From positions 3,412,001-3,476,000 of the forward strand of contig CM075994.1 in assembly GCA_038087875.1 (NCBI GenBank): 64,000 nt of DNA, given 5' to 3'. The translations under genes were made by a program, and so were the position numbers. Positions 19,062 to 42,712 of this stretch are shown piece by piece. The notes below the pieces were generated by a model. It ran no database searches and was not told the origin of the DNA. It worked only from the letters and a program-made list of their open reading frames with translations. Every line of letters starts with the position of its first letter. Within the stretch, counting starts at the first letter, position 1. The stretch comes from Malacoraja senta. Taxonomy: Eukaryota.

Positions 19062-19088
19062 AATTTAACATCCGTAAAAAGGAATCAG
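19062..19088 (+). CDS. micro-exon 27 nt, EFNIRKKES
   Basis: ttttttttcag|aatttaacatccgtaaaaaggaatcag|gtaat. Confidence 0.85.
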
Positions 19089-19622
19089 GTAATCGGGATG
19101 AAATTATTACTCCACTTGATGTCATTGCTAATGTTGAAATTCGTGTGTGCAATGGCAGGGAAATCACATTGCATTCAAAATCATCTTATATTACCTGTTT
19201 GGGTAATAATCCCGTGCCCAGTGAAAATAGTACAGGTGCATTACGAAAACGCACAGAAAATTGATTTGCATACTATGAAAATAGGCTTGCATACTTTGCA
19301 GCCTATAATAAATATGTTAGCATGTTGGGAAGTAGGAAAAAAGCTGTGTAAAACCAAAATCTGCGTTCGTAGAATTAGAAGTGATGAATCACAATGAAAC
19401 CGGAATAATAGAAACGAGAGAACAGTAGCAACATGAAAATAAAATAAGGATTTGATAAAAGAATATAAATATGATAAATTGCCTGCTGAAAGCAAGTGAA
19501 ATAATGAACAAAGGCTGGCTTATTAAGATGGATTGTCTGACAATGAAAAGCGACCTCTAAAGTTAAAAAAGGTAACCATACCAATAATTTTCGATGACTT
19601 ATTATTACTAATATTATTCCAG

Positions 19623-19649
19623 ACATGTCTGATCATTTGAAAACCGATG
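19623..19649 (+). CDS. micro-exon 27 nt, DMSDHLKTD
   Basis: attattccag|acatgtctgatcatttgaaaaccgatg|gtgagt. Confidence 0.85.
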
Positions 19650-20158
19650 GTGAGTAACGTGATATGTTGAGTAGAAGTAAAGTAAGAAATTGTATCAACG
19701 TTATTTTGCTCTGAAAACACAACTCTGCAATTGTAATTTCTCGCATTTTAATCACTTATTTGAATCAATTTCCACGTCCTGTCAATGTTGTTACCTACAC
19801 AGTTACTCAATTAACTCCTTTCGTTTTACCCTGGTTAACTACAATAAACCAATTTTCAAAATCTAATTTCCCCTTCCCTGTGCATCTTCGAATGTTCAGT
19901 TTCTACGTTCATAATACATGGCGAAACAAAGTATTACTTTCACATTAGCAATGAAATGATTATGCTTAAATAGACTGTGGTTATTTTTTTACATTTATCA
20001 CCGCACCCCCTACGTTGCAGAAGACAACATTTATTAAATACGGAAAACACACACGCCATAAAAAAGCAGTATGCCCTTTTCTTTGCATTGAAGTCACCTT
20101 CAAAAAAATCAGAAACTAGAACTTTATTGTCAATACAAAAAATGTGTTGATCATACAG

Positions 20159-20185
20159 ACCAGAAGCTTAAAGAAGCACAATCGG
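20159..20185 (+). CDS. micro-exon 27 nt, DQKLKEAQS
   Basis: tcatacag|accagaagcttaaagaagcacaatcgg|gtaagt. Confidence 0.82.
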
Positions 20186-20959
20186 GTAAGTCCTCGAATT
20201 TGTTTGATATTTCCGCCAAGAAAACTTCAAATTATGTCGTTCGATGGCGGTCTTCTTAAAAAACGATAGGTTATCGAAAATTGCAATGATGAATTTTCCA
20301 CGCAACTCCACCGAATAAATTAAAAGATATGATCATTTTGAAATTAGCAGTAGAACTTTAAAAATGGCAAATCACAGATGTTCCCGCAAAGAAAAGTTTG
20401 ATTTTCGCACTCCTATGGGAAGCAGACAATCAATTTGTGCGCAGGCTCAATTAACGTCTTAAAATCAATATAGCGTAAGGTCATACGCAAATAGAATCGC
20501 ATGCTTAAGTTTTCACCCATAACAGCAAGTTGAACATTGCAGTAGCAAACTGCAATATTGAATTTAAATACGGGGCGCTGGGCTGTAAGAGTTGATTTCA
20601 ATATTGTTTCAGATCATATCATTCTATTTCCATTTGCTCCGTCTAAGCCATGCCGAGTGTTACAGCAATTCCAACAATCGTCCCCATCTACTTAATTCCC
20701 ATTTCGAACAAATGGGCACTCCTTAATTCTCTTTTCACACATCGACCCAACTTACACGTTACCAAATGTTCCAAAAAGAGGTCATTTTATGTGATGTAGG
20801 AGAAAACCGAATACAAGCAGTAAACCGAAAAGTAATTTCGCATCATGAAAAAACGATAGTTTTGCGAGATTTCCAAGTTGCGAACATTTCCATTCTTTGG
20901 TAACTTGTTTTTGTGACTTATAAATGGACGGAAAGTGATCGAAGCATATATATTTCCAG

Positions 20960-20995
20960 AACTCCTGCAATTAACGGCAATTCGAGCGGATCTCG
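20960..20995 (+). CDS. micro-exon 36 nt, ELLQLTAIRADL
   Basis: tatttccag|aactcctgcaattaacggcaattcgagcggatctcg|gtgag. Confidence 0.85.
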
Positions 20996-21110
20996 GTGAG
21001 CCAATGTTATATATTTTGTGCAATATAAAACTGTCAGTAAAGACGTTAGATTTTTCTTGTTATCGAAGTATTTTGACGGATTTTTCAAAAGATCCTTGTG
21101 GTTGAAGGAA

Positions 21111-21446
21111 ACATACATAGATACATAGAAAATAGGTGCAGGAGTAGGCCATTCGGCCCTTCGAGCCTGCACCGCCATTCAATATGATCATGGCTGATCA
21201 TCCAACTCAGTATCCCGTACCGGCCTTCTCTCCATACCCCCTGATCCCCTTAGCCACAAGGGCCACATCTAACTCCCTCTTAAATATAGCCAATGAACTG
21301 GCCTCAACTACCCTCTGTGGCAGAGAGTTCCAGAGATTCACCACTCTCTGTGTGAAAAAGGTTTTCCTCATCTCGGTCTTAAAGGATTTCCCCCTTATCC
21401 TTAAGCTGTGACCCCTTGTCCTGGACTTCCCCAACATCGGGAACAT
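21111..21446 (-). mobile_element. Young CR1 3' fragment
   Basis: Near-identical to the 3' end of the 38251-42008 copy. Confidence 0.95.
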
Positions 21447-22303
21447 ACAGCGGGCAGCGAATGTGTTTATACTACGGTGAATTATTCAAAATATTTAAAG
21501 CACATATTATAATGAAAAACATAATCATGTTCATGAAATTCGGTAGGCCTATGCTAATTCTTACGCCTTCTCGACATTGGAAGATCGAACAATCAATGCG
21601 ATCACCTCACTGAGATAAAACATCTAACTTCTGCGACCCATTTTGAAAGGATGCTGCATTAATTTTCAGCATTTTTTAAAAACTCAGCTGCCCCTTCCCT
21701 TAATTACAGCCATGCTTACTGCAATATTGCTGCTCAAATTTGTTGCTCATTTGAAGATGTAGATAGTTGATTGTCTCTATTTAATATTTCGCTGCAATAC
21801 ATTTTACTGTTCGCGACTCACATTTCTCTCTGCACTCCTCGCCGTCCACTGTTCGAATTGACGGGTCTTATCGTCCTTCCTTTATTTTGTCTTGCTTTTG
21901 AAATGCTTCTGGACAACTCTGAACTTTTCAATGACAACGCCGAACTGTGACGTGCTTGTTGTTACTTTCGGAAGTTGAAGCACTCTCTTTGATAAGTTCA
22001 AACACCCCACTATCCACCATTGTTAATTCGCCAACCGACCATTACCATGCCATTTTATTTACTCCAGAATCCTCAACATTAGCTTTTACGTTAATAGAAT
22101 TGCATCCTTTACAGCCAAAAAGAGAAAGGACGTTGAGTCATGCTATCGCTAATTGATATTTAAACGTTTTAAAACTCTGAACACGTGACCTCCCTTACGG
22201 AATACCTTACAATACCTGTTGTCTTGCAATGCACTTTGAATAAATTAGATGAATTCCTACATTTCCTTTACTTACTTTCCTAGTTATGTGTCCATTCTCA
22301 CAG

Positions 22304-22330
22304 AGAAATTGCTACTTATAAAGAATGAAG
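22304..22330 (+). CDS. micro-exon 27 nt, EKLLLIKNE
   Basis: tccattctcacag|agaaattgctacttataaagaatgaag|gtaaa. Confidence 0.83.
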
Positions 22331-23687
22331 GTAAACAAACGCTATATTCAAAGTTAATTCTTCAGTGAAATGTAATTGGTAATCCATCTCCTTTAGTGAC
22401 TTTGTCAAACAGTTATGGCGGATTGGCAACTCTTTGAACTCTTCCAATTTTTTTGTTTCAACCAAATTCGATAAAACTTGGAGCATCATAGCACTTTCGC
22501 ACTCTTACACTACATTTTGGGGCTAATTTCGTCGCGAGATCCTATATATTCCTGCCCATCGAAAACAGATTCAAAGTAAAGACCGAAAGAAATCAGAAAT
22601 AAATTCATGTGAGCATTTGATCGTGATGAATGCTTTTATTCTGAATAACAAATAACAAGCCAGTATCACGATAACCCAAGTATTTTGATTTAAAAAGAAT
22701 CTTAGAGTATATCTTGGCGTATATGGCCAAAAGCTGAACCTTTTTCTTCTACAAGTTCCATTCAAAGTTGAGAACACTGTGTGGATTATACTGCTATCAG
22801 ACTATGATTTATCAGTGTAACACAGTACTTACAGCTTTCTCTGCTGACTTCGAAGCGGAATAATAAGGTATTCAATGGGCTGCAGCTTTTATCCAATAAT
22901 CACTTTATTTCTGATTAATAGTTGTACAAAGAGCCATAGGAAATTCGGTGAGAAAAAGGGAACACGTCAAACATTAGAAAATTACTTTTCCGGATTTTCC
23001 CTGCCTTTATTGATAGAGGCAGTTCCAAGCAATAACACCAACTGAATTGTCATGCACTTAAAACATAATGAAAGTAAACTGCCACTGCAATTCTGCCGTT
23101 TTGTTAATAATTCAATTGATGTTGATATCAAGGGTGCTATTATTGCATTTCAATTATCGTTCATTTCACCAATTTCCCTTGCTAGTTTCTCAGTGTATCA
23201 GATAATCACAGACATTGATCAGTTGATTAAAAAAAGTCAGTGAGCTTTCAAATTTTATTAAGATGTTCATACTTCGGCAGACAGTGCAGTGAGCCTCTGG
23301 CTGACTCAACCACTCATCACATTTCGCGTTGAGCCCCGCTCCTCGACATTAAAGGCTTGGCGAGCCCGAGCCTTGGTTGCGAGACAGATCACAGGTGAGG
23401 TCCCTGGCCGTGGAAACATTACGCACGTTCCTTATGGTTGGCATAGGCACTAACAATGAATTCAATCAACACATGCAATTGACAGAATTATAATTAACAC
23501 TCTGACTACATCAAGATTCCAGCATTTGTAGTTTCTTGTCCCTCCAGTATTGGCCTTCGTATGACAAATGGATATTGTATTCAATAGAAGGGGATATTGA
23601 TCTGAGCATGGTTCGCCATATTCTGCAAATTAATTTTCAAGCAAAACGCACGTTATTTCCCACAGTATGTGTTTTATTTGTTGGCAG

Positions 23688-23714
23688 AAGTTAAAGAACT
23701 AAAGAAAAATAATG
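23688..23714 (+). CDS. micro-exon 27 nt, EVKELKKNN
   Basis: ttttatttgttggcag|aagttaaagaactaaagaaaaataatg|gtatgt. Confidence 0.83.
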
Positions 23715-24256
23715 GTATGTAACAACTCGAGAATGGTTGCATCGACGAACTGTTCGGGACAGTCGGCTTCTATATTATTTTGGGGTATACAGCAAGGAAA
23801 ATGCTGATGGAGCTGCAGCTCTAGACCAGAGAATGTCCAGAAAATGTTTTCAACGGGCTCTTCAACTATAAGCGTGTGTATTGCAATCCTATTCATGCGA
23901 ATACAGGCGGTGAGTTACGAAAACACGTATTTTTTATTCTTACTTGTCATATATTTCAATTATCAGCCCTTAAGCATCCAATGATGTAAAGGAAACTTTT
24001 AAATTATTTATTACGATTTAACATATTTTAACTCACAATTATTTATAGCCTTGGCACGTGTTGCGGTGAGAGCGCCGTTCTAATAATGCGAAACATGCTC
24101 AACTCCAACTGCGTGTCAAAGAGGCATTGGGACAATGCCACGGTATGGACTCATTACCTACCGATCGCGTACAAATTTCTGGACATCCGTTGGCCTCTCA
24201 TTTCCATGCTCACGAGCCCAGAAAAGAAGCGCGCAATTGACGGTTAAAATTGTGGA

Positions 24257-24693
24257 ACCCCCACAATTAAAATGTGGATAATGGAAATTTCGGAGACCCT
24301 ACACCTGGAAAGAATCAGATTTGTCTTAATGGACAAACAAGAACTTTTTGTTAGAATATGGTCTCCATTCATTGACTATTTGAAGGGGTAGATCGGTTCG
24401 GCACGGGAACCTAACTGAAGCTTGAACTTAGGATTAGATGAAAAGTTATACTTTATAACCTACGAACCTATCTTCAAATTATGTATTATTAGTAAATCAT
24501 TCCACTCTTTATTTAAATCTTGACATTTGTGATTTTTTTCTCTCTTTCTTTCTTACGTTCTATCTATTAAAAAAAAACTAGAAGCAGTATCAATCCACAA
24601 TTGATAATATTAATAATGTATGGTTGATATACATGAAATGTTTTACCATAATATGTTTTTGCTTCTAATAAAAATAATGTTTTAAAAAATAAC
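24257..24693 (+). mobile_element. 5'-truncated L1-clade LINE 3' end
   Basis: WIMEISETLHLERIRF..FVRIWSPFIDYLKG* resembles an L1 ORF2 C-terminus; A-rich tail; TSD AAATTGTGGA at 24247-24256 and 24694-24703. Confidence 0.75.
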
Positions 24694-24910
24694 AAATTGT
24701 GGAGGCCTCATCACAAGGCGGGTCGACTCTAACTGAACAGGACGAAATAAAGTAGGTTATTGGAGTATTCATTTTCCAGTTATTCTTCCTCGGTTTAACA
24801 ATATGCTTCCCATTTGAGATTGCTTACCATTTGAGATGTAAATGTTTGTCGATCACGAATCGTTTAAAACAATAACAAAAAACATGATTGAACATTGTCT
24901 TCTTTTTCAG

Positions 24911-24934
24911 AATTGAAAGTAAACTGCATACCAG
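24911..24934 (+). CDS. micro-exon 24 nt, ELKVNCIP
   Basis: tcttctttttcag|aattgaaagtaaactgcataccag|gtaac; fills third slot of a four-exon module. Confidence 0.75.
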
Positions 24935-25660
24935 GTAACTATTTTCACGTGTTTATTTTTCTTTCCATTCTATCCAGTCTTCCTTGAATTTGTTCATTAT
25001 TATGAAACGAATCGACTCCATTAATTATTCTGGGATCATGAACGACAGCAATAACTCAGTAAAGGTTCAGTAAACTAAAGGCAAATGGATTAACGCATAG
25101 TAAATTAATATCTGAAGGCATAATTTGGTTAATTAATCACTTAATATTACATAGGAAGTAGAAATTACAGAAGTAATTTTCCCACCTATCGAAAAAACGG
25201 AAGAAAATTTGATCACGAAGTGTTAATACACATCAGCAAAGGCTGAACATAATCTGTTCACTTTCACCTAAATTACTCATTGGAAACGAATAAATTCCTG
25301 ATTAACTAAAAACGGCGATTAATATTATCCAGTACCAAGAAACTATTTCAAAACGCCTTAATCAACTAAAAGGAGGCATCAGCGATAGTTTGTTGTTAAA
25401 TTCCGGAGATCCAATCGGTAGATTACCTTGTCCTTCCACTCAGCTAGGCCCATCAATCAAGAGTCCACAGTTTTTCCACGGTAGTATTTACATTTCAGTA
25501 TTATTCGCACTCTCTGTGAACCCAATATCAAATTTGTCGATATCAAATTTCATTTTTTATATGCCTTGAAGTTATTGGACTGAAATTATGTTGACGCTTA
25601 TAATGTGACAACCTTCAAAGCACAGCCGAATGAGAATGATTGATCGATCATATTTTCCAG

Positions 25661-25696
25661 ACCGAGAAAAGCTCGAAGCTATTCAAAAAGATATCG
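25661..25696 (+). CDS. micro-exon 36 nt, DREKLEAIQKDI
   Basis: tattttccag|accgagaaaagctcgaagctattcaaaaagatatcg|gtaagt. Confidence 0.87.
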
Positions 25697-25847
25697 GTAA
25701 GTACACTCCAAACAATTGCTAAATATGCATTACTAATGATGTCCTGATGAGAGTACAATTCAACATGATGTTTTGAAGCCAGGTGTAACTGACTGAAATA
25801 GACACTTGAATTCCATTAATACTGTATATATTTTTACATGTTCACAG

Positions 25848-25874
25848 TGCAGCTGTTAGAGCTGAAAGATAAAG
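25848..25874 (+). CDS. micro-exon 27 nt, VQLLELKDK
   Basis: tgttcacag|tgcagctgttagagctgaaagataaag|gtaaa. Confidence 0.83.
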
Positions 25875-26496
25875 GTAAAAGTTATGCGGCCAAACATCAT
25901 GTGCTGAAACAGGTTGGATCAAAAATAATCGAGATATAGATAAGAAAAAAACAATAAAAAAGAGGATACTATAAAACAAAGTAAGAAAGTCATCCAAGGG
26001 GGAGATATTGCGATAAGTAGTATTAAGCTTATTGATTAAGATTAATTGATGTGGTATAACCACGATGAAGATAATTAAAGCGCTAATTATTAATAAAATG
26101 TTTTAAGATAGGGTAGAATTCGAACAAAATAACAATTATATAGTCGTTCTCTGATACGCCACTAACTGTTCATTCTCAGATAATTCAATGTGAGAAAGAG
26201 GAAACATACTGTAGCGGAATGCCATAGGGTGACGCCCTGAAATTAGGATACTGGATACCCGTTAACCCTGTAACAACCAGTTGAAACCCAATAGGAATTC
26301 GACGCATTTTCACCTTGCATTACTCACAGAAGTATGTAAGTCTGAATCGTAAAACGTTCATGCCCCATTACCACTGTAGGCTGTGGGAGGAGCATTGGTT
26401 GCAACATTTATTGTAATGCATGAAGGGGTGGGCGACAAAAGTTAAATTAATAGTAGTTATATTTGTTTGAATTAATATGCGGAATGGTTTCTTTAG

Positions 26497-26523
26497 AACT
26501 TGAAGAAATTCGTCGACAGAAGA
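26497..26523 (+). CDS. micro-exon 27 nt, ELEEIRRQK
   Basis: gtttctttag|aacttgaagaaattcgtcgacagaaga|gtaag. Confidence 0.83.
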
Positions 26524-27191
26524 GTAAGCTACATTATCCGGTGTCAACAATATGCACCAATCGTTTTGTTTCATGTCGAATTTAGCATGGCTGCAACGCT
26601 GAAACACTGATATTCATTTATTTACATGTTACCTTAAATTAGAAAGCATTTGAAAATCAACAGTGCAAAGATTGAAATATTCGAATTAATGGCGAAGTAT
26701 TACAATGCATGTAAATAATAACGTATGTTTTGGGAAAGTTCGTTGAAATACAATAGCATTCACCCCTTGGTTTCATCATGCTACACCAATATAAATGATT
26801 TAAAAAAAACATGCCAGGATTGATCAAATTACACTGGTCACGAAAGAGCTAATTTCATTGTCTCAATTTCAATGAGACACAATTTATCGAAATGTATAGG
26901 ATAGTTATCTGGCCAAATACATCTATAGTAGGGAACGTTTGATGGAGGACGGGGCAGTAAAAGCATGCCGTCTGAATTCCTCGCAAATGCATTGAACAAT
27001 ATCAGAGTGACACTTATTTAAAACAAAACCGGAAATAACGCATTTCAATTAAAAATGTGTTTTAAACGTTTCCTTTAAGGTACTTCTGTGCAGGAATGCG
27101 GTAAGAGCGTAAAAACAAAACAAACATATATATTACGTCAAACTAAGACTTCATCTGCGCCTCATTTTATTGTATTATTACATATTTTCAG

Positions 27192-27218
27192 ATAAAGAGC
27201 TTACTACAACGAAATCAG
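27192..27218 (+). CDS. micro-exon 27 nt, NKELTTTKS (GC donor)
   Basis: tattttcag|ataaagagcttactacaacgaaatcag|gcacgt; non-canonical GC donor inferred from module pattern. Confidence 0.7.
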
Positions 27219-27319
27219 GCACGTAATATAAAATGGCTTGGAAGATTAAAAAATGTAATTTCTGACAGAATGATACAAGGCACGAGAATACAGCTCAGAT
27301 TACAACACTACCATGAAGT

Positions 27320-27760
27320 TAAGTCATTCAAGTCTGATAGATATCTGCTTACGATCAGCCTCCTGCGTCCCATGGAATAAGCTCCATGCCTGTCCACTTC
27401 TCCCTATAGCTCAGGGCCCCGATCCTGGAAATACACTCATTAATCTTATCTGAACTCTTTCCAGCTCGCAAACATATTTCCCATAGCAGGCTGACCAAAC
27501 CTGAACAAAATAATACAAATGCGGCCTTAGCAATATATTGTACCACAGCACCATTACATCCCAAATTCTATACTCAATACCCTGACTGCAATGTATCGAA
27601 AGCCTTCCTGAACACCCTATCTACATGTGAAGCTACTTTCATGGTGACGTGTACCCAAACCTCTATATCGCTCTGCTCTAAAAACACTCCCTAGGGCTCT
27701 GCTATTCATTGTGAATATCCTGCCTGTTTGACTTCCCAAATTGCTACACCTCACTCTTGT
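27320..27760 (-). mobile_element. Old CR1 fragment
   Basis: Decayed match to the CR1 ORF2 C-terminal region. Confidence 0.6.
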
Positions 27761-28199
27761 GTGCAATTTGGGTCAATTTGGAGCGTCAGTAGAATGTCAT
27801 CATATCGTCTCTTTTAAATATCTTGATTATCATAATTTCAGGCCCTGTTCTGGCGACGACATCTGTGTCAATGGTTTTCAGAAGAAATGGAAAAGGGTTG
27901 TTGAGGTCTCCTTCCTCGTTAGACGTGCATAATGGACCTACATTTCATACTTTATCTTTATTGTAGGAACTATCAAACCTTGCGTTGTGAAGAGATTTCT
28001 GACTTGTTTTTCCTGAGTCCAGTGTAAATGAAAAAGGTCTTGATGACCATAAACTATTTCTCTGCCGAAACCAGAACACTTTTCACATTGAGGAGCATGT
28101 GTGGGGAAACATATCCTCTTAACAGTTAATTAATTTTATGGAGTAAAGGTATTTAATTCAAATGTAACTTCAAGAAAATGTATTGCTTTGGCATTTCAG

Positions 28200-28235
28200 A
28201 GGTTCACACACTTAAGTCCACGTTGGAGATAGCAA
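28200..28235 (+). CDS. micro-exon 36 nt, EVHTLKSTLEIA
   Basis: gcatttcag|aggttcacacacttaagtccacgttggagatagcaa|gtaag. Confidence 0.82.
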
Positions 28236-28689
28236 GTAAGAGATCACCACTGGCGGCTATTGTAATTTAAACACGATGCAGGTGGAAAGTCGGGATAGCG
28301 TAGAATTAATATGCACCTGAGAGAGAATTGGATTACAGAGAAAAAACGTGAAGAAGTAAATGAGAGATTGCAGACACAAAATGCAGGAGTAATTCAGCGG
28401 GACAGGCAGCATCTCTGGATAGAAGTAATGGGTGACGTTTCGGGTCGAGACCCTTATTCAGACTCCTTCTTCAGATGAGATATTGTTTTCAGAGCTGGCA
28501 TGCACACAATGGGCGGAAGGGCATCCTTCCATATCGTGGGGATCTAAACAATGAAGTAACAAATCTTGGAATTGGTCGACAGCTTGACTGGGCGTAAAAA
28601 CATCGGCCGATCTATGTGAACTTTTAGTGAAAAAAGCCATCTTCTCCGTAAATCATTCACCCAGTTAATGTGGTGCCAAGGGATAGAGA

Positions 28690-29920
28690 GCCAGAGAGCC
28701 ATAGAGTGATACAGTGTGGAAGCAGGCCCTTCGGCCCAACTCGTCCATACCGGCCAACAATTTCCCAGCTACACTAGTCCCACTTGCCTGCACTTGGGCC
28801 ATATCCCTCCAAACCTGTCCTATCCATGTACCTGTTTAACTGTTTCTTAAACGACGGGATAGCCCCAGCCTCAACTACCTTCTATGTCAGCTTGTTCCAT
28901 ACACCCATCACAATTTGTGTATAAAAGTAACCCCTCGGATTCGTATTAAATCTTTCTCCTTCACCTTAAACCTCTGTCCTCTGGTCCTCGATCCCCCAAC
29001 TCTCGGCAAAAGACAGGTGCATCTAACCGATCTATTCATCTCATGATTTAGTATACCTCTATCAGACCTCCGCTCATCCTCCTGCTCTCCATGCAATAGA
29101 GACACAGCCTACTCAACCTCTCCCTGTAGCTCACACCATCTAGTCCTGGCAACAACCTCGTAAATATTTTCTGAACCCTTTCAAGCTTGACAATATATTT
29201 CCTAGAACACGGCACCCAGAACAGAACACATTATTCTAAATGCGGTCTCACCAACGTAGTTTACAACTGCAAAAAGACCTCCCAACATCTATACTCAATA
29301 CTCTGACTGACGAAGGCCAAAGTGCCAAAAGTGTTTTTGAGCACCTTATCTACCTGCAACTCAACCTACAAGGAACCATGCACCTGTACTCCTAAAACCC
29401 TCTGTCCACAACCCAGAGGTCTCCTATTTACTGTGTAGGTCCTCCCCATGTTCGACGTCAAAAAATGCAACACCTCACATTTCTCTGTATTACATGTTAT
29501 CAACTATTCCGCCGCCCACCTGGCCAATCGATCCAGATCCTGGTGCAATAGTTCACAACCATCTTCACTGTCTGCAAAACCACTAACTTGTGTATCATCA
29601 GCAAACTTGCTGATCTTGCCCTGTATTTTCTCATCCAAATAATTGATGTAGGTTGCAAACAGTAACCGGCCCAACACCGAACCTTGAGGCACACCACTAG
29701 TCACAGGCATCCAGTCTGAGAAGCAACCTTCCTCCATTACCCTTTGCTTCCTTCCATGGAGTCAATTTGCTATCCATTCAGCTATCTATCCTTGAATCCC
29801 ATGCGAAGTAACGTGCCAGAGCAGCCTACCATGCAGAACCTTGTCGAACGCCTTACTGAAGTCCATGTACACAACATCTTCAGCTCTGCCCTTATCAACC
29901 TTTATGGTCACGTCTTCAGA
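28690..29920 (-). mobile_element. Older CR1 subfamily 3' fragment
   Basis: VTSGVPQGSVLG..KISKFADDT..DLDRLARWA; CR1 3' UTR. Confidence 0.9.
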
Positions 29921-31340: not shown

Positions 31341-31367
31341 AACTTCTGAAACATGTCAAGAGTGATG
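31341..31367 (+). CDS. micro-exon 27 nt, ELLKHVKSD
   Basis: ttttcaccccag|aacttctgaaacatgtcaagagtgatg|gtgagt; similar to DMSDHLKTD. Confidence 0.85.
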
Positions 31368-31628: not shown

Positions 31629-31700
31629 CGTTTAGTTTAGTTTAGTTTAGTTTACTTTAGTTTAGATCAGTTTAGTTTCGTTTTGTTTAGTTTAGGTTAG
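31629..31700. repeat. (GTTTA)n microsatellite
   Basis: Seen directly. Confidence 0.9.
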
Positions 31701-32840: not shown

Positions 32841-35800
32841 GTTCAAGAAGGAACTGCAGATGCTGGAAAATAGAAGGAAGACAAAAGTGCTGGAGAAATT
32901 CAGCGGGTGCGGCAGCGTCTATGGAGCGAAGGAAATAGGCAACGTTTCGGGCCGAAACCCTTATTCAGACTGATGCAGGGTGGGTGGGGGGGCGGGAAGA
33001 AGAAAGGAAGAGGAGGAGCCAGAGGGCTCAGGGAGAGCTGGGAAGAGGAGGACACAGCAAGAGCTACCGTAAATTGGAGAAGTCAATGTTCAAGCCGCTG
33101 GGGTGCAGACTGCCCAAGCGGAATATGAGGGGCTGCTCCTCCAATTTCCAGTGGTGCTCACTCTGACCATGGAGGAGGCTCAGGGCAGAAAGGTCGGATT
33201 CGAAATGGGAGGGGGAGTTGAAGTGATGAGCCACAGGGAGATCAGGTTGGTTAATGCGGACCGAGCGGAGGTGTTCGGCGAAACGATCGCCTAGCCTACG
33301 CTTCGTTTCACTGATGTAGATCAGCTGATAATCTAGAGCAGCGGATGCAATAGATGAGGTTGGAGGAGGTGCAGGTGAACCTCTGTCGCACCTGGAACGA
33401 CTGCTTGGGTCCTTGAATGGAGTCGAGGGGGAAGGTAAAGCGACAAGTGTAGCATCTGCTGCGTCTGCAAGGGAAACAGCCCGGGGAGGGGGTGGTGCGG
33501 GTGGGAAGGGAAGCATTGACCAGGGAGTTACGGAGGGAGTGGTCTTTGCGGAAAGCAGACAGGGGGAAGATGGGAAAATGTGGCGAGAGGTGGGGTCACG
33601 TTGGAGGTGGCGAAAATGACGGAGGACTATTTGTTCTATGTGACGGCTAGTGGGGTGAAAGGTGAGGATTAGGGGGACTCTACATGTCTAGATGTCCGCT
33701 GCTCTAGATGTCAGCTGATCTACATCGGTGAGACCATGCGTAGGCTTGGCGATCGTTTCACCGAACACCTCCGCTCGATCCGCATTAACCAACCTGATCT
33801 CCCTGTGGCTCAGCACTTCAACTCCCCCTCCCATTCCGAATCCGACCTTTCTCTCCTGGGCCACCTCCATGGCCAGAGTGAGCACCACCGGAAATTGGAG
33901 GAGCAGCACCTCATGTTCCGCTTGGGCAGTCTGCACCCAAACGGCTTGAACATTGACTTCTCAAATTTCCGGTAGCCCTTGCTGTCTCCTCCCATTCCCA
34001 GCTCTCCCTCAGCTCTCTGGATCCTATTCTTCCTTTTTTCTCCCCCACCCACCCACCCTGCATCAGTCTGAAGAAACGTTGCCTATTTCCTTCGCTCCAT
34101 AGATGCTGCCGCACCCGTTAATTTCCTCCAGCACCTTTGTCTACCTTCGATTTTCCAGCATCTGCAGTTCCTTCTTGAACATTTTATCTACTCCACTGCG
34201 ATATCTCCTCAAGGTATGCCTACTTTGAAGAAGTTCTCCTCCTCCCTCCGAAGACAGTTTCACAACCTTCTCTCTGACTGCCCTAACCCCCCCCCCCTCT
34301 GTGATTCCCCGTTCCCTCCAACTCTACGACCACATCCTAACCCAGTCCCGATACGACAGCCACGTTTGCTTTCTCGGGACATGCCTGCGTCTCCGTCTCG
34401 TGCCTCATGGCCTTCAGCTCCAGTTCTCTACCTCCCAGTTCGGACACAAGCCGGATTTTCGATAACGACTGGCTATCTGCAATTCTCCTTCCGGACACTG
34501 AGATCTGCTCTGGGTGCTATGCGCCGGCACCAGCAGGACCTCGCTTTGATTCTCCCGAAATTTCGGGTCTCAGTTACCCAGACCTGCAACGGACCCCAAG
34601 TCTACTTCATCCTCCGGAAGATCCAGGTCTTCAATCCTGGCCCACCTTAACTCCACCAAGGACCTGAAACTAGCCCGCCTCCAGGCCACTCCTGCCACCT
34701 CTCCGCGACTCGACCGATACCGTCGCCTCCGCCTCACAGCGTTCTTCCATGGGAATGAGCTCTCTCCCCCCATTGTTAATCCCTTGTCCCGTCGCCAACG
34801 GACCCCCTCCTCTTGGAACCCCTCCTTCATGGCCAACCTCCGGCTATAGACATTTTTATTCAAAACTGCTGGCGGGACAACAACCGCCTCAAAATCTCCA
34901 CTCCCCTGTCTCACTCTAACCTCTCCCCCCCTGAACGTACAGCCATCGACTCAATCCGCAACAACCCACACTGGGTTATCAAACCCGCCGACAAGGGAGG
35001 TGTCGTGGTAGTCTGGCAAGCTGATCTCTACAAAGCTGAGGCCACGCGCCAACTCTCGGACACCTCCTCCTACTGATCCCTGGATCATGACCCCACTGAG
35101 GAGCACCAGGCCACTATCTCTAGCACCATCACTGACTTCATCAACTCCGGCTCCCTGCCTCACGAAGCCTCCAACCTCATCGTTCCCCAGCCCCGCACGG
35201 CTCGATTTTACCTTCTCCCCAAAATCCACAAACCTGACTCCATCCTATCCCTCCTGGTTAAATCTCTCCAGACCTATGACCAAGACACCTCAGACATTCT
35301 CCGTCGTCTCCGGGCATTACATTCTCTAGGCCATCCTCAGCTTCACCATGGACGTCCAGTCAATCTACACCTACATCCCTATACCAGGAGGGTCTCAAAG
35401 CCCTCTGGTTCTTCCTCGAACGGAGAACCAAACAATCCCCGTCAACAGATACTCTCCGCCTAGCGGAGCTGGTCCTTACCCTCAATAACTTTCGTTTGAC
35501 TCCTCCCATTTCCTCCAAATACAACTCGTAGCTATGGGCACGCGCATGGGCCCCAGCTATGCCTGCCTCTTTGTAGGGTACGTCGAACAATCCATGTTCG
35601 AGACGTACCAGGGCCCCATCCCCGACCTCTACCTCCGCTACATCGACGATTGCATTGGTACTACCTCCTGCACTCACACACAACTCACTGACTTCATCAA
35701 CTTCACCACTAACTTCCATCCGGCACTGAAATACACATGGACCACTTCCCTACCATTTCTTGACCTCACTATCTCCATCGCAGGTGACAGACTTCTGACC

Positions 35801-36792
35801 GACATCCACTATAAACCTACTGACTCCCATGGCTATCTAGACTACACTTCTTCCTACCCTGCTTCCCTTCTCCCGATTCCTCCATCTACGCCGCATCTGC
35901 TCCCAGGATGAGGTGTTCCACACGAGGGCATCGGAAATGTCCTAATTCTTCAGGAAACGGGGGTTCACCTCCCCTACTATACAATAGGCTCTCACCAGGG
36001 TCTCTTCAATACCCCGCAACACTGCACTCTCTCCCCATCCCCCCACTCGGAACAAGGGCAGAGTCCCCCTAGTCCTCACCTTCCACCGCACTAGCCGTCA
36101 CATACAACAAATAGTCCTCCGTCATTTTCGCCACCTCCAACGTGACCCCACCACTCGCCACATTTTCCCATTCCCCCCCCTGTCTGCTTTCCGCAAAGAC
36201 CGCTCCTTCCGTAACTCCCTGGTCAATTCTTCCCTTCCCACCCGCACCACCCCGTCCCCGGGCACTTTCCCTTGCAAACGCAGGAGATGCTATACGTGTC
36301 GCTTTACCCCCCCCCCCCCCCCCCGACTCCATTCAAGGACCCAAGCAGTCGTTGAAGGTGCGACAGAAGTTCACTGGCACCTCCTCCAACCTCATCTCTT
36401 GCATCCGCTCCTCCAGATGTCAGCTGATCTACATCTGTGAGACGAAGCGTACGCTTGGCGATCGTTTCGCAGAACACCTCCGCTCGGTCCACATTAACCA
36501 ACCTGATCTCCCTGTGGCTCAGCACTTCAACTCCCGCTCCCATTCCGAATCCGACCTTTCTGTCCTGGGCCTCCTCCATGGCCAGAGTGAGCACCACCGG
36601 ATATTGGAGGAGCAGCATCTCATATTTCGCTTGGGCAGTCTGCACCCCAGCGACTTGAAGATTGACTTCTCCAATTTCCGGTAGCACTTTCCGTGCTCTC
36701 CCTCCCCTTCCCAGCTGTCCCTCAGCCCTCTAGCTCCTCCTCTTCCTTTCTTATTCCCCGCCCCTCCTCCCACCCTGCATCAGTCTGAAGAA
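32841..36792 (+). mobile_element. Penelope-like element: inverted 3' segment (32841-33680), pLTR (33685-34180), degenerate RT and GIY-YIG ORF, truncated 3' pLTR
   Basis: IKPADKGG, MGTRMGPSYACLFVG, YLRYIDD, YKPTDSHGYL, IYICETKRTLGDRFAEH. Confidence 0.93.
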
Positions 36793-36949
36793 GTGTTTTA
36801 TCATTAATGTTTCATTATGATTAATGTTTGGTGTTTTCTGAGTCATTCGTAACTGTCACTGTATGCCATTTTGTTACTTGTGGGCGGAGCACCAAGGCAA
36901 ATCCCTTGTATGTGAATACTTGGCCAATAGACTTACTTACTTATTCACT

Positions 36950-37237
36950 TTAGTGATACAGTGCTGAAACAGGCTCTTTGGCACACGGAGTCCACACCGA
37001 CCAGCTATCCCCGCAAACTAACGCAATCCTACACTACACTCATGCCAAGCCAATTAACCTACAAACCTACTCGTCTTTGGAGTGTGGAAAGAAACCGATG
37101 AACTCGGAGAAAACCCACACTGTCACGGGGACAACGTACAAACTGCGTACAGAGAGAACCCGTAGTCGGGATCGAAACTGGATCTGGCGCTGAAAGCGCT
37201 GTAAGGCAGTAACTCTAACGCTGTCACCATGCCGCCG
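36950..37237 (-). mobile_element. tRNA-derived V-SINE (HE1-like)
   Basis: Minus-strand tRNA-like head, V-core-like gtgggttttctccgagttcatcggtttctttccacac, CR1-type tail. Confidence 0.75.
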
Positions 37238-37602
37238 ATTATGATGACTCGCGCGGTATATTTGCACCCGTGCGTCTTCCTGCTATGGAATCGACTGTGA
37301 TGGCATTCTCATAAAGTTATTGTCAAAATACATTTTCGGTACTAAGCTAATTTTCAGCGTGGTCAGATCGACCACATGTATGCAACTTTAGAAAACAAAA
37401 GCAAATATGGAGGAAATAGAGCGGACAAGGCCACAACATCCATGTATAGTCGAATGAAACCACCATGTCTTTATGCAATAGCAAGTTTTGTGTTCAACTG
37501 CGGCAGAAGGGCATAAACCATTATCAAATAAAAGAAGAATATGACACCTCATCTCAGTCATTGTTGCTTTAATATATGTTGCTTCGCTTTTTATTCTCGC
37601 AG

Positions 37603-37629
37603 AGGAACAGATACGTGAAACCCAGCAGG
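37603..37629 (+). CDS. micro-exon 27 nt, EEQIRETQQ
   Basis: tttttattctcgcag|aggaacagatacgtgaaacccagcagg|gtaaa. Confidence 0.83.
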
Positions 37630-38250
37630 GTAAATGGCTTATTTTTCATTCACTTAGAGCTGTCGTTTCTGCGGCTGAGACAAATGTACAAAAATTGTGA
37701 AGAGGTGCTGTCATTACTCTTACACGTCTGACATCAGTGACCATAGAGGCAGCCTCTTGAGATCTACTGATTATCTTTTAAAGTAGAGAAAACTTTGCTT
37801 TGCGCAAATGGTTATATTGAGGACCAGTCATAAAGATATTGAATGACGACGAAGCATTGAGGGGATAGGTTGTCTATTCCTGGTCCTACTTTTGTTGTAT
37901 TTGCCTGTGAAAATTCAGAATTATCATTACAAAGTGATTGGGAAGCATGATAACCAGTGGTTCTGTGCAGAGTTGTATGTTAACTGCACGGCTTATCGGC
38001 GTAGACGAGACATTGAGGACTGAATTTCAAACTCATGTGCGAGGTCAAACGACAATGCACGCAGTCAACATCCCTGTCGGTTGAATAGCAGACTGAGAAT
38101 CGCACTGAAGAACGGTCCCGACGTCACCTCTCCGTGTTCTCAAGAGATGCTATCTGAATCGTTGAGTTACTCGAGCACTTTGCGTCCTTCTGCGTATTAA
38201 TCACAATCGCAGTTCTTTGTTTCATCTCCCTCCACACTTTCCGCCCTCCG

Positions 38251-41200
38251 TAGGGTAAGAAGGGTAAGGAAAAGAAGAGGAGGGCAATATTAATAGGGGA
38301 CTCTATAGTTAGGGGGTCAGACAGGCGATTCTGTGGACGCAGTCGGGAGACCCGGATGGTAGTTTGCCTCCCTGGTGCCAGGGTCTGTGATGTGTCCCAA
38401 CGTGTCCAAGACATCCTGAAAGGGCAGGGAGAGGAGCCCGAGGTCGTGATACATATAGGTACCAATGACATAGGTAAAAAAAAGAGAAGAGGTCCTGAAA
38501 GGAGAATTTAGGGAGTTAGGAGGGGAGTTAAAGAGAAGGACAGCAAAGGTAACAATCTCGGGATTACTGCCTGTACCACGCGACAGTGAGAGTAGGAATG
38601 GAGCGAGGTGGAGGATGAATGCGTGGCTGAAGGACTGGTGCAGAAGGCAGGGATTCAAATTTCTGGATCATTGGGACTTCTTTTGTGGAAGGTTCGACCT
38701 GTACAAAAAGGATGGGTTGCACTTGAACCTGAGGGGGACCGATATCCTGGCGGGGAGATCTGCAAAGGCTACTGGGGAGACTTTAAACTAGAATGGTTGG
38801 GGGGAGGGACTCAAATAGAGAATGCTATTAGACAGTGTGTGAGGCAGGAGGCAGAGAAGGAAAGCACTCAGACCCAACATGTAGGGGGGAAAGAAGAAAA
38901 CAATAATAAACAGAGAATAAGAGGTGGTGGGGTTCTTAAATGGATGAGCAGAGAAACAGAGGGGTGTAAAATGCGGGCGGAAGCAATAGGTAGCAAGGTG
39001 AAAGGTAAAAGTGGCAGGCAGACAAATCCAGGACAAAAATCAAAAAGAGCCACTTTTCAACATAATTGTATAAGGGGTAAGAGCGTTGTAAAAACAAGTC
39101 TGAAGGCTTTGTGTCTCAATGCAAGGAGCATTCGTAATAAGGTGGATGAGTTGAACGTGCAGATAGCAATTAATGATTATGATATAGTTGGGATCACGGA
39201 GACATGGCTCCAAGGTGACCAAGGCTGGGAGCTGAACATCCAGGGATATTCAATATTCAGGAGGGATAGAGAGAAAGGAAAAGGAGGTGGGGTGGCGTTG
39301 CTGGTTAGAGAGGAGATTAACGCAGTGGAAAGGAAGGACATTAGCTTGGAGGATGTGGAATCGGTATGGGTAGAGCTGCGAAACACTAAGGGGCAGAAAA
39401 CGCTGGTGGGCGTTGTGTACAGGCCACCTAGCAGTAGTAGTGAAGTTGGGGATGGCATCAAACAGGAAATTAGAAATGCGTGCAACAAAGGCAAAACAGT
39501 TATAATGGGTGACTTCAATCTACATATAGATTGGGTGAATCAAATTGGCAGGGGTGCTGAGGAAGAGGATTTCTTGGAATGTATGAGGGATAGTTATCTA
39601 AACCAACATGTAGAGGAACCAACGAGAGAGCAGGCTATTCTAGACTGGGTATTGAGTAATGAGGAAGGGTTAGTTAGCAGACTTGTTGTGCGTGCCCCCT
39701 TGGGCAAGAGTGATCATAATATGGTTGAGTTCTTCATTAGGATGGAGAGTGACATTGTTAATTCAGAAACAACGGTTCTGAACTTAAAGAAAGGTAACTT
39801 TGAGGGTATGAGACATGAATTGGCCAAGATTGACTGGCAATTAGTTCTAAAAGGGTTGACGGTGGATATGCAATGGAAGGCATTTAAAGACTGCATGGAT
39901 GAACTACAAAAATTGTTCATCCCAGTTTGGCAAAAGAATAAATCAAGGAAGGTAGTGCATCCGTGGATAACAAGGGAAATCAGGGATAGTATCAAAGCAA
40001 AAGATGATGCGTACAAATTAGCCAGAAAAAGCAGCATACCAGAGGACTGGGAGAAATTCAGAGACCAGCAGAGGAGGACAAAGGGCTTAATTAGGAAAGG
40101 GAAAATAGATTATGAAAGGAAACTGGCAGGGAACATAAAAACTGACTGCAAAAGTTTTTATAGATATGTGAAGAGAAAGAGATTAGTTAAATCAAATGTA
40201 GGTCCCTTGCAGTCAGAAACAGGTGAATTGATCATGGGGAACAAGGATATGGCAGACCAATTGAATAACTACTTTGGTTCCGTCTTCACTAAGGAAGACA
40301 TAAATAATCTGCCGGAAATAGCAGGGGGCCGCGGGTCAAAGGAGATGGAGGAACTGAGTGAAATCCAGGTTAGTCGGGAAGTGGTGTTGGGTAAATTGAA
40401 TGGATTAAAGGCCGATAAATCACCAGGGCCAGATAGGCTGCATCCCAGAGTACTTAAGGAAGTAGCTCCAGAAATAGTGGATGCATTAGTGATAATTTTT
40501 CAAAACTCTTTAGATTCTGGAGTAGTTCCTGAGGATTGGAGGGTAGCAAACGTAACCCCACTTTTTAAGAAGGGAGGGAGAGAGAAAACGGGGAATTACA
40601 GACCAGTTAGTCTAACATCGGTAGTGGGGAAACTGCTAGAGTCAGTTATTAAAGATGGGATAGCAGCACATTTGGAAAGTGGTGAAATCATTGGACAAAG
40701 TCAGCATGGATTTACGAAAGGTAAATCGTGTCTGACGAATCTTATAGAATTTTTCGAGGATGTAACTAGTAGAGTGGATAGGGGAGAACCAGTGGATGTG
40801 TTGTATCTGGACTTTCAGAAGGCTTTCGACAAGGTACCACATAAGAGATTAGGATACAAACTTAAATCACACGGTATTGGGGGTTCAGTATTGATGTGGA
40901 TAGAGAACTGGCTGGCAAACAGGTAGCAAAGAGTAGGAGTAAACGGGTCCTTTTCACAATGGCAGGTAGTGACTAGTGGGGTACCACAAGGCTCAGTGCT
41001 GGGACCCCAGCTATTTACAATTTATATTAATGATCTGGACGAGGGAATTGAAAGCAACATCTCCAAGTTTGCGGATGACACTAAGCTGGGGGGCAGTGTT
41101 AGCTGTGAGGAGGATGCTAGGAGACTGCAAGGTGACTTGGATAGGCTGGGTGAGTGGGCAAATGTTTGGCAGATGCAGTATAATGTGGATAAATGTGAGG

Positions 41201-42008
41201 TTATCCACTTTGGTAGCAAAAACGGGAAGGCAGACTATTATCTAAATGGTGGCCGATTAGGAAATGGGGAGATGCAGCGAGACCTGGGTGTCATGGTACA
41301 CCAGTCATTGAAAGTAGGCATGCAGGTGCAGCAGGCAGTGAAGAAAGCGAATGGTATGTTGGCCTTCATAGCAAGAGGATTTGAGTATAGGAGCAGTGAG
41401 GTTCTACTGCAGTTGTACAGGGTCTTGGTGAGACCACACCTGGAGTATTGCGTACAGTTTTGGTCTCCAAATCTGAGGAAGGACATTATAGCCATAGAGG
41501 GAGTGCAGAGAAGGTTCACCAGACTGATTCCTGGGATGTCAGGACTTTCATATGAAGAAAGACTGGATAGACTTGGCTTATACTCGCTAGAATTTAGGAG
41601 ATTGAGAGGGGATCTTATAGAAACGTACAAGATTCTTATGGGGTTGGACAGGCTAGATGCAGGAAGATTGTTCCCGATGTTGGGGAAGTCCAGGACAAGG
41701 GGTCACAGCTTAAGGATAAGGGGAAAATCCTTTAAGACCGAGATGAGGAAAAACTTTTTCACACAGAGAGTGGTGAATCTCTGGAACTCTCTGCCACAGA
41801 GGGTAGTTGAGGCCAGTTCATTGGCTATATTTAAGAGGGAATTAGATGTGGCCCTTGTGGCTAAAGGGATCAGGGGGTATGGAGAGAAGGCAGGTACGGG
41901 ATACTGAGTTGGATGATCAGCCATGATCGTATTGAATGGCGGTGCAGGCTCGAAGGGCCGAATGGCCTACTCCTGCACCTAATTTCTATGTATCTATGTA
42001 TCTATGTA
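38251..42008 (+). mobile_element. Young CR1 LINE with partial SGNH-esterase ORF1 and complete-length ORF2
   Basis: ORF1 LIGDSIVRG..CLPGARV..HIGTND..DGLHL (frameshift in A-run near 38480); ORF2 APE and RT; (TCTATGTA)n tail. Confidence 0.97.
38971..41907 (+). pseudogene. CR1 ORF2 (endonuclease/reverse transcriptase) with a single in-frame stop
   Basis: ORFs 38608-40926 and 40969-41907 share a frame; TAG at 40924-40926 where the minus-strand copy has AAG (NRKQRV). Start codon uncertain. Confidence 0.9.
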
Positions 42009-42133
42009 CGGTCGGTTATTACGAGTGTTACGATGGTTTGCTGTATTATAATTCGAATTATTAGTTTAATCAACTTACTGTCCTTCAAAAACAGTGAGAT
42101 GTTTTCTTCAGCAGGCATATTATTAAAGTATTA

Positions 42134-42375
42134 GGTACACAAAAAACGCTGGAGAAACTCAGCGGGTGCAGCAGCATCTATGGAGCGGAGGAAATAGGCA
42201 ACGTTTCGGGCCGAAACCCTTCATCAGACTGATAGGGGGTGGGGAGAAGAAAGGAAAAAAGGAAAAAAATGCGGAGGAGGAGCCCGAGGGCTGGGGGATG
42301 GGAGGAGACAACCAAAGGGCTGATGAAGGGGAGGGGACAGCAAGGGCTAGCAGAGTTGGGAGAATTCGATGTAAT
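42134..42375 (-). mobile_element. Penelope pLTR fragment
   Basis: Matches about 32880-33060. Confidence 0.85.
42195..42235 (-). ncRNA. Minimal hammerhead ribozyme motif in a Penelope pLTR
   Basis: Minus strand cagt-CTGATGA-agggtttcggccc-GAAA-cgt: canonical core, short stem II, palindromic ACGT. Confidence 0.65.
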
Positions 42376-42676
42376 CGAATAATTGTGCAAAATACTTCAG
42401 ACAACGGCATGTTTTCCGCCAACGGAGTCCTAACCAGCCTGTTACGCCTTACATTCGGAGCATATCAGCACACCTACGAAGAATTTTCAGAGTTGAACAG
42501 CTGAAAATAAATCAATTTGCTATCGTGTTATGTTTCAATCTTAATTTTATATTTAATGTTTTACTTTGTCATAAAAGTTGCAAGTGATATACTTTTCTAC
42601 TCGGACAAACAAATACTTAATTACCTCTTTAAACGATATCATTGAGCACATCGATAATGGGTAATATATTTCCTAG

Positions 42677-42712
42677 AACGTAAGAAAATAGAAGCGATTC
42701 GACTGAACGTTG
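42677..42712 (+). CDS. micro-exon 36 nt, ERKKIEAIRLNV
   Basis: atatttcctag|aacgtaagaaaatagaagcgattcgactgaacgttg|gtaag; similar to DREKLEAIQKDI. Confidence 0.85.

Follow-up and report, generated by a model that had tools for sequence, protein, structure and literature searches.

The closest described system is formed by the chicken BG genes and the zipper protein. In their available parts, two sources (PMC5938342, PMC8813856) describe MHC-linked tandem genes in one orientation, which encode a long coiled coil in many tiny exons with a split first codon, vary in length, show intron read-through and lack B30.2; in all these respects the gene analysed here is alike. Chicken BG carries an IgV domain together with a membrane segment, of which none were found in the present cluster, and reaches the cell surface as a disulphide-linked dimer. 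BG exons are 21 nt long (few are 18 or 24 nt), whereas those of the present rod gene are mainly 27 and 36 nt, a distinction already drawn in an earlier note on this DNA, though one conserved 21-nt exon occurs in the third module described below. The predicted rod, at about 1,030 residues, is about five times as long as that of BG (27 heptad exons in BG13), and its register is maintained across exon sets. Butyrophilins (BTN/BTNL) have MHC linkage in common with the cluster, cartilaginous fishes included as far as the available part of PMC12841164 goes, as well as a heptad stretch followed by a B30.2 exon, which is found here in paralogue C1 and is nearest to BTN3A1 among solved structures. They differ in that the rod cluster contains neither IgV/IgC domains nor a membrane segment, its heptad region is enormously longer, and gene A, to which the present exons belong, is without B30.2. 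TRIM-B30.2 proteins combine a coiled coil with PRY/SPRY as do C1 and its orthologues only, but RING and B-box are missing from the C1 orthologues.

The window, a stretch of 64,000 nucleotides (1..64000, + strand), covers the central fifth of gene A, a predicted + strand gene that extends over ~310,000 bases (about 3,227,800-3,542,000 of G000:C18). The first coding exon (3,228,899-3,229,018) and the stop exon (from 3,540,456), both on the + strand, lie outside the window. Like BG, gene A has a long heptad tail with a period of about 3.5, written in about 111 phase-1 micro-exons, mostly of 27 or 36 nt, a count from which five unaligned single candidates had been dropped. Judged from its sequence, the exon array in the window is probably the middle of a tandem-cluster gene that would encode a coiled-coil rod, soluble and located in the cytoplasm, with about 1,070 residues and without a receptor or B30.2 domain of its own, and that was built by repeated duplication of phase-1 exon sets.

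All 16 exons which the earlier note had arranged as four 27-27-27-36 modules were recovered in place on the + strand, with AG acceptors, GT donors apart from a GC at 27219, phase 1-1 and the peptides read before. A generic splice score gave 78 candidate exons on the + strand of the window, including 13 of 27 nt and six of 36 nt, while other lengths averaged 1.1 candidates each; the - strand gave 49 candidates, none of 27 nt and one of 36 nt. In paralogue B all 16 array exons were matched one-to-one, with length and order unchanged. Specifically, module 1 consists of three 27-nt exons in slots 1 to 3 (19062..19088, 19623..19649 and 20159..20185) and a 36-nt exon in slot 4 (20960..20995). Module 2 carries 27-nt exons in slots 1 and 2 (22304..22330 and 23688..23714) and a 36-nt exon in slot 4 (25661..25696), but its slot 3 (24911..24934) is 24 rather than 27 nt in both paralogues, so that the module measures 38 aa. 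Module 3 comprises 27-nt exons in slots 1 to 3 (25848..25874, 26497..26523 and 27192..27218, the last with a GC donor in A and B) and a 36-nt exon in slot 4 (28200..28235). It additionally contains a 21-nt exon (27080..27100, + strand) overlooked by the earlier note, which is kept in B with a pair splice score of 39 (27- and 36-nt exons, 19-48) and turns the module into 27-27-21-27-36, or 46 aa. A low-depth contig of run X2 carries this exon with identical DNA; contigs of runs X1 and X2 cover a minor part of 24700-28400. Module 4 has 27-nt exons in slots 1 to 3 (31197..31223, 31341..31367 and 37603..37629) and a 36-nt exon in slot 4 that is identical in B (42677..42712). It is preceded by an uncertain 24-nt candidate (30678..30701, + strand), whose splice sites are kept in B, but whose weak score of 22 falls inside the range of non-coding pairs, and the 3.5 periodicity drops when it is counted in. 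At most two of the four modules in the array are exact, although places, splice sites and peptides of the 16 exons stand.

The 27-36 units of 21 aa that had been described on either side of the array are present upstream (13028..13054 and 13332..13367), but the unit directly after the array reads 27-12-36 (45253..45279, 46076..46087 and 46660..46695), with the 12-nt exon conserved in B. It is followed by a 21-aa unit of 27 and 36 nt (48834..48860 and 50505..50540). Further downstream lie a 27-nt exon (61615..61641) and a 12-nt exon conserved in B (61780..61791), both found as splice-site pairs kept relative to B, and another conserved 27-nt exon (62828..62854). At the start of the window, a 36-nt exon (252..287), detected as a splice candidate and by internal duplication, belongs to the first copy of a two-exon unit that was duplicated within the gene; the other exon of this copy, 24 nt long, falls just outside the window, 22-45 bases ahead of it. 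All these exons are on the + strand. From 13028 to 50540 every module and flanking exon was supported by comparison with B, as was that at 62828; the exons starting at 13028, 20159, 20960, 25661, 27192, 28200, 31197, 42677, 46660 and 62828 were also found by the candidate scan, and that at 19062 was included in the slot test. Candidates that recur within copies of LINEs, such as those at 39767-39793 and 6928-6960, were set aside as repeat-derived, and a 26-nt candidate at 46181 was discarded for a stop in B.

The exon-versus-exon comparison proposed in the earlier note bears out its slot-specific similarity, and exons do group by slot. The nearest neighbour belongs to the same slot for 14 of the 16 exons by protein (permutation p=5e-5) and for 9 of 16 by DNA. 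Moreover, all 16 were assigned to the right slot from eight modules of paralogues Z, C1 and C2, an assignment that is not fully independent because some of these modules are paralogous copies of the same positions. Across six gene models, 27-36 makes up 27 of the 113 intervals between 36-nt exons and 27-27-27-36 makes up 14 (3 of 24 in gene A). Since slots 1 and 3 belong to one broad exon class, the base grammar would consist of two exon kinds in alternation. The 27-nt kind would provide one core leucine at position 4, and the other kind would provide cores 2/5/9/12 in 36 nt, or 2 and 5-6 in 27 nt. The next-class order over all six genes is 0.241 against a shuffle maximum of 0.087; for gene A alone it is 0.293, under the shuffle maximum of 0.384. 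The idea of slot 2 as a clipped 36-nt exon was only half supported: slot 2 is nearer to the starts of 36-nt exons in 8 of the 14 modules, compared with 1 of 14 for slot 1 and 2 of 14 for slot 3.

Coiled coils with stutters are an established concept, and the earlier note had read the 39-residue module as 4x7+11, that is, with one stutter or hendecad. The predicted 39/11 periodicity is present: averaged over 14 exact 27-27-27-36 modules, hydrophobicity has its peak at harmonic 11 (a period of 3.545), and averaged over 27 exact 27-36 units the peak falls at 3.5. A coiled-coil product is supported. The rod thus matches stuttered coiled coils (heptad/hendecad mixtures) in the value of 3.545, four heptads plus one hendecad, and differs in that exon sets lay down the pattern and odd exons interrupt it. 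The statement that no single exon is a heptad multiple does not survive, because the conserved 21-nt exon equals one heptad, and with it counted in, the power at 3.5 increases from 1.16 to 1.30. The true exon order beats 300 of 300 exon-order shuffles for heptad periodicity in A, B, Z and C2; the test fails in C1 and D, both represented by less complete gene models, where 100 and 54 of the 300 shuffles, respectively, reach the same height.

Recent duplications copied whole units of 21 and 78 residues. Gene A contains a recent internal duplication of a two-exon unit, C2 one of an eight-exon, 78-aa block (two modules), and D a serial duplication of 21-aa units; one 21-aa unit differs between A and B. 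The earlier claim that only whole modules would be duplicated or skipped is contradicted by exons lost or varying singly. Compared with B, gene A has lost two blocks, which measure 85 and 90 residues, along with at least four single exons: four single B exons (36, 27, 33 and 9 nt) have no splice sites in A, which are four of the six aligned at both ends among eight examined. Between RefSeq isoforms of a C1 orthologue, which are database models and not reads, the differences are single pieces of 6 or 9 residues, one of them matching exactly one predicted 27-nt exon. These single losses, together with five A/B exon pairs of altered length, are what would be expected if the slots reflected duplication history alone and the module register itself were not selected, since duplicating an ancestral in-register unit yields slot identity and periodicity without selection; nor are A/B differences enriched for multiples of 7 (3 of 15 blocks, several blocks being false calls). 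We consider this explanation unlikely, as those internal duplications that stand out clearly, in A, C2 and D, measure 20-21 or 78 residues, and as core positions 2, 5, 9 and 12 of the 36-nt exons are 80-90% identical between paralogues, compared with 60-85% elsewhere (20 pairs). In a rod whose exon sets keep the register, 27+36 would give three unbroken heptads, 27-27-27-36 would add up to eleven turns that include a single stutter, and duplications of these units would be favoured by keeping the hydrophobic seam. Odd exons (9, 12, 18 and 24 nt), single losses and skipping would cut the rod into jointed segments and be tolerated.

Gene A is one of at least six tandem paralogues, all on the + strand, in a cluster that adjoins MHC class I-region genes. 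The BG-like arrangement of a tandem same-strand cluster, with six + paralogues beside phostensin, POLR1H and TRIM genes, is therefore present; the flanking phostensin and POLR1H agree with elasmobranch MHC lists, and the true RING/B-box TRIM genes lie at a distance of 120 kb. In published elasmobranch MHC gene lists, the place beside nurim appears as an empty stretch, which measures 1.83 Mb for white shark and 0.96 Mb for sawfish. The catshark list has genes in the same place, six or seven on the same strand and 0.18-1.18 Mb in size, linked to the micro-exon family by position, size and strand only; the catshark loci upstream of nurim run from LOC119976526 to LOC119975530. We found no published description of the cluster, which subscription papers or supplements could hold. 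Every exon, the ATG-bearing and B30.2 exons included, is in phase 1-1 on one strand, as would suit a single gene of about 750 kb composed of Z, A and C1, which ends in the sole B30.2 exon and uses A's first and stop exons as alternative start and end points. Such a gene appears unlikely, however: the colinearity of A and B extends from the first exon into the 3' region, and they have a common stop exon, no B30.2 exon occurs between B or D and the genes that follow them downstream, about 100 kb nearly without micro-exons lie between A and C1, and the RefSeq C1 orthologues are 353-460 aa long, the electric-ray one beginning at exons that match the start of C1.

With A treated as a separate gene, its comparison with B indicates that their exons are under purifying selection. 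In both genes, 97 of the 110 kept splice-site pairs are multiples of 3, and of these 97 pairs one contains a stop when read in phase 1, compared with 54 and 59 pairs in the other phases. The dN/dS is 0.40 (bootstrap 0.31-0.51) over 99 exon pairs and 0.64 within the array interval alone (18 pairs); identity is 83% in exons and 75% in aligned introns. Both genes have an ATG-bearing exon of 117-120 nt at one end and, at the 3' end, a strong acceptor, a TAG in matching position and, about 1 kb further on, an AATAAA that aligns between them; a conserved block at C18 3,227,800 lies upstream of the ATG exon. One junction stop occurs in each of the models A, Z and C2, so that they hold false or missing exons, and a conserved mid-gene 26-nt exon (3,398,163) would shift the frame or truncate the protein. 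The blocks and exons lost in A, and an A exon of 28 nt in the assembly, might suggest a decaying or silent copy. We regard this as very unlikely, because a contig of run X1 gives 27 nt for the same exon, and A's paired exons are without internal stops at a dN/dS that is an average over both lineages.

The first coding exon of A is acidic, without a signal-like stretch, and has no Pfam match; compared with longer proteins it gave two candidates, none of which scored. Its profile gave two matches among 1.84 billion representatives, one an unnamed 40-residue fragment, the other a 3,926-residue repeat protein that was dismissed as chance. An aligned query of 22 exon translations, a poor profile applied to proteins of <=2,000 residues, gave 3,017 candidates, none of which scored. 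No membrane segment was found in A, the highest 19-residue hydropathy being 0.81 in A, 0.56 in B and a borderline 1.56 in the C1 model, and none of 30 candidate long exons fits one. The six frames of 1.68 Mb contain no Ig motif, and six V-domain loci of the same genome have no real match in the cluster.

A B30.2 exon terminates only paralogue C1 (Pfam SPRY E 9.8e-12); there is no B30.2 match in A or B, which end in their common stop exon. RefSeq proteins of Narcine and Scyliorhinus, found via this exon (65% and 49% identical), consist of a coiled coil and PRY/SPRY and nothing else, with RING and B-box absent from both, and are labelled 'TRIM39-like' and 'zinc-binding protein A33-like'. The predicted C1 exons map onto them in order. 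A single-chain model of the Narcine orthologue shows three long helices followed by a strand-rich domain at a low mean pLDDT of 52. Among solved structures, the C1 B30.2 scores best with BTN3A1 (E 2.8e-24), followed by TRIM58, pyrin and TRIM21 (best TRIM-family chain 4.6e-19). Growth of the array from a 27-nt TRIM exon preceding B30.2 is unsupported in two neighbouring TRIM genes, in neither of which a 27-nt phase-1 exon was found ahead of the B30.2 exon. That the array is the tail of a butyrophilin/BG-type membrane receptor with overlooked Ig and transmembrane exons, as the BTN3A1 match, the MHC position and the phase-1 heptad exons might hint, is extremely improbable and largely refuted by the cluster without Ig motif or V-domain match, the RefSeq orthologues carrying PRY/SPRY only and the acidic first exon of A.

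Gene A thus resembles, by analogy, a chicken BG tail without the receptor. Its product may act as a dimeric spacer or scaffold, like the freed BG tail (zipper protein), would most likely occur in immune or epithelial cells, and could pair with the B30.2-bearing paralogue. The design principle is already known from BG, and the strict rule of the earlier note fails; exon sets rather than single exons match the helical repeat of the protein, with a measurable rate of exceptions. A conserved family under purifying selection would fill the empty stretches next to nurim, which could partly be assembly gaps. The finding also bears on the role of BG/butyrophilin heptad tails and on whether these act jointly with separate B30.2 domains, a possibility that PMC5938342 brings up for chicken. 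As a speculation that we hold to be improbable as a whole, the shark and ray MHC might contain an undescribed megabase cluster of receptor-less BG-like rods, in which B30.2-less giants such as gene A pair via coiled coils with one B30.2-bearing member, and in which exon sets of 21 and 39 residues are cassettes that set rod length and twist. If true, this would be a split, intracellular butyrophilin design, retained since the divergence of sharks and rays and invisible to most annotation.

We scanned the interval for short AG..GT segments by using a generic splice score, and all 16 exons of the four consecutive 27-27-27-36-nt modules (39 aa, slots 1-4) that the earlier note had placed at window 19062-42712 were present in phase 1-1. 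With this score, 27 nt accounts for 13 and 36 nt for 6 of the 78 plus-strand candidates in the window, any other length for about 1, and the corresponding minus-strand numbers are 0 and 1 of 49. A search of the own genome revealed one paralogous stretch, 650 kb downstream of the window, and a GC donor at window 27219-27220 is common to both paralogues. The window also contains an old internal duplication of a two-exon unit (1-1238 versus 12893-14310, with 10575-12886; 78-83% identical), in which the 36-nt exons are one base apart and LTR and LINE insertions now lie between the copies. Two close LINE copies, presumably of CR1/L2 type, reside in introns (window 38596-41907, plus strand; 6493-9544, minus strand) and carry long endonuclease/reverse-transcriptase-like frames, those of the plus copy being 776 and 326 residues with one stop between. 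Broken LTR elements, which we take to be Gypsy-like, are likewise found within introns (window 835-4800 and 51100-55600).

About 1.8 Mb of the contig (CM075994.1, here C18) was fetched, and an exon model was trained on 196 clear 27/36-nt candidates; because it was trained on those sizes, the later length counts lean towards 27/36 nt. Over 1.6 Mb of C18 the model gave 469 plus-strand versus 26 minus-strand candidates. The plus-strand micro-exon candidates form runs at 2.98-3.18 Mb (gene Z), 3.228-3.542 Mb (gene A, the predicted gene of the window), 3.64-3.734 Mb (C1), 3.75-3.906 Mb (C2), 3.922-4.184 Mb (B) and 4.21-4.425 Mb (D), and stretches sampled beyond the TRIM genes show that the minus strand carries one more paralogue, at 4.64-4.75 Mb (L183, L184, L125, L187-L189). 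Between Z and A, a few phase-1 exon candidates of 21 and 27 nt follow one another (C18:3,201,271-3,211,754); in exon size they are nearer to the chicken B-G (BG) genes. Near-identical tandem blocks flanking 200-N gaps at C18:3,547,488-3,603,891 and 4,183,673-about 4,286,000 (99.6% identical over 28 kb; 99.9% with an offset of 51.5 kb) are probably false duplications of the assembly.

Genes A and B are colinear over their whole length. Each begins with a conserved 540-base block, 79% identical between the two compared with a mean of 75% (sd 2.3) for intron windows, and an ATG-bearing acidic exon. Each finishes with a strong acceptor that is followed, 8 codons on, by a TAG in the corresponding position, and with an AATAAA that aligns between them. 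Predicted gene A comprises 111 micro-exons (1,026 residues; five unaligned candidates were dropped beforehand) plus the first and stop exons, so that about 1,070 residues are spread over 312 kb. From the rise per residue of a helix, its product, if fully helical, would form a rod some 160 nm long.

The coding signal was assessed with 110 splice-site pairs that A and B have both retained, picked without a frame filter. Lengths are multiples of three in both genes for 97 of these pairs; phase 1 contains a stop in 1 of the 97, the other two phases in 54 and 59. The dN/dS between A and B is 0.40 (0.31-0.51; 99 exon pairs), and 0.64 for the 18 pairs in the interval of the four modules. One gene A exon (L008:3775-3802) is 28 nt in the assembly and 27 nt in paralogue B, and since it is also 27 nt in a contig of run X1, the extra base is probably an assembly error or an allele. 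Both A (C18:3,398,163-3,398,188, L011) and B (4,069,415-4,069,440, L030) retain a 26-nt exon candidate with a very strong acceptor; if spliced, it would shift the frame into a stop, and if its donor is read through, the two genes reach a stop at matching positions six codons on. The candidate may thus serve as a poison exon or as an alternative end in mid-gene, comparable with the read-through truncations of chicken BG tails. A 37-nt candidate at window 10609-10645 (phase 0 to 1) would restore the frame of A after the 26-nt exon; this is probably chance, because its upstream duplicate copy has no splice sites and B has no counterpart.

The slot-specific similarity proposed for the modules is borne out, since the nearest neighbour lies in the same slot for 14 of 16 exons (p=5e-5) and, with 8 modules from other paralogues as the reference, all 16 were assigned to the right slot. 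Unsupervised exon classes are of two kinds. Specifically, 183 of the 260 exons of 27 nt carry a single core residue, at position 4; such exons precede 36-nt exons in 81 of 112 cases and follow them in 83 of 118, and slots 1 and 3 are both of this kind. The 27-36 unit (21 aa) makes up 27 of 113 intervals, with a period of 3.5, and the 27-27-27-36 module 14 of 113, with a period of 39/11. For A, B, Z and C2, periodicity with the true exon order was higher than with any of 300 shuffles; for C1 and D it was not. By eye, two module subtypes tend to come in succession, a module with a histidine-bearing slot 2 and then one with an arginine-rich slot 2 (window 19062-25696 and genes Z, C2 and B), and the C2 duplication copies a 78-residue pair of this sort, which would be a further level of order.

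The strict regularity in the earlier note does not hold: one exon of module 2 has 24 nt, a 21-nt exon present in A and B is added to module 3, module 4 may have an additional one of 24 nt, and the unit right after the array is 27-12-36 rather than 27-36. The expectation that only whole modules are duplicated or skipped stands largely for duplication: copies whose introns can still be aligned comprise entire units, with 78 residues (C2), 20-21 residues (A) or 21 residues (D), and a few single-exon copies occur in Z and C2. It fails for loss and skipping: in A, the splice sites of four individual B exons are dead. RefSeq isoforms (database models) of the catshark are set apart by a single 9-residue piece, and those of the electric ray by one piece of 6 or 9 residues, the 9-residue piece matching one predicted 27-nt exon. 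Register is a tendency, not a rule.

A single intact B30.2 exon, in phase 1, lies at the end of C1; the sequence that was fetched shows no other downstream of A, B, Z, C2 or D. Used as query, the C1 exon retrieved 2 proteins among 137 candidates; it is 65% identical to an electric ray RefSeq model (5 isoforms) and 49% to a catshark one (3 isoforms), values that point to a batoid. These C1 orthologues consist of coiled coil and PRY/SPRY only, and the predicted C1 exons match them in order, which independently supports the exon calling. The catshark orthologue (P0013) starts, over residues 1-100, with 9-residue repeats that are nearly perfect, which looks like an independent multiplication of a single 27-nt exon in the catshark lineage. 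Additionally, the ESM Atlas contains chordate protein clusters of 1,277-1,802 residues with PRY/SPRY, many isoforms and automatic names; they may represent long members of the micro-exon rod family, or other fishes' proteins that merely resemble it. Within 1.68 Mb of C18, neither an Ig motif nor a match to V domains was found. The family would work like BG, but by defining domains it falls outside BG, butyrophilins and TRIMs.

The cluster is flanked upstream by a FoxG-like forkhead gene and downstream by an exon with a weak MddA match, which we take to be nurim-like, phostensin, POLR1H and the TRIM genes. According to the elasmobranch MHC lists that supplement PMC10751288, the gene order is POLR1H, DHX16, RPS5, nurim, and the sawfish list names phostensin within the POLR1H-nurim set. 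Next after nurim, the catshark list has six or seven genes, all on one strand and 0.18-1.18 Mb in size, whereas the white shark and sawfish lists have gene-free stretches of 1.83 Mb and 0.96 Mb, respectively. From this position, we infer that these catshark genes and the white shark and sawfish gaps hold the micro-exon rod family.

With symmetric phase-1 exons, duplicating or skipping any block would leave the reading frame intact; those with 21 or 39 residues would also preserve the hydrophobic seam, and would dominate. The gene A product would be a cytoplasmic, segmented coiled-coil dimer, for which the chicken BG tail is the closest working model. That tail is built from 21-nt exons, is varied by read-through and, as the intestinal zipper protein, acts on actin-myosin (PMC5938342, PMC8813856). 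MHC linkage of butyrophilins extends to cartilaginous fishes (PMC12841164). Pairing of BG tails with separate B30.2 domains has been proposed (PMC5938342), and we hypothesize that gene A pairs with C1. Our literature searches found no description of a micro-exon rod cluster. New here are evidence that genes without B30.2 exist as separate units, a quantified exon grammar together with its exceptions, and the synteny of the cluster with elasmobranch annotation gaps.
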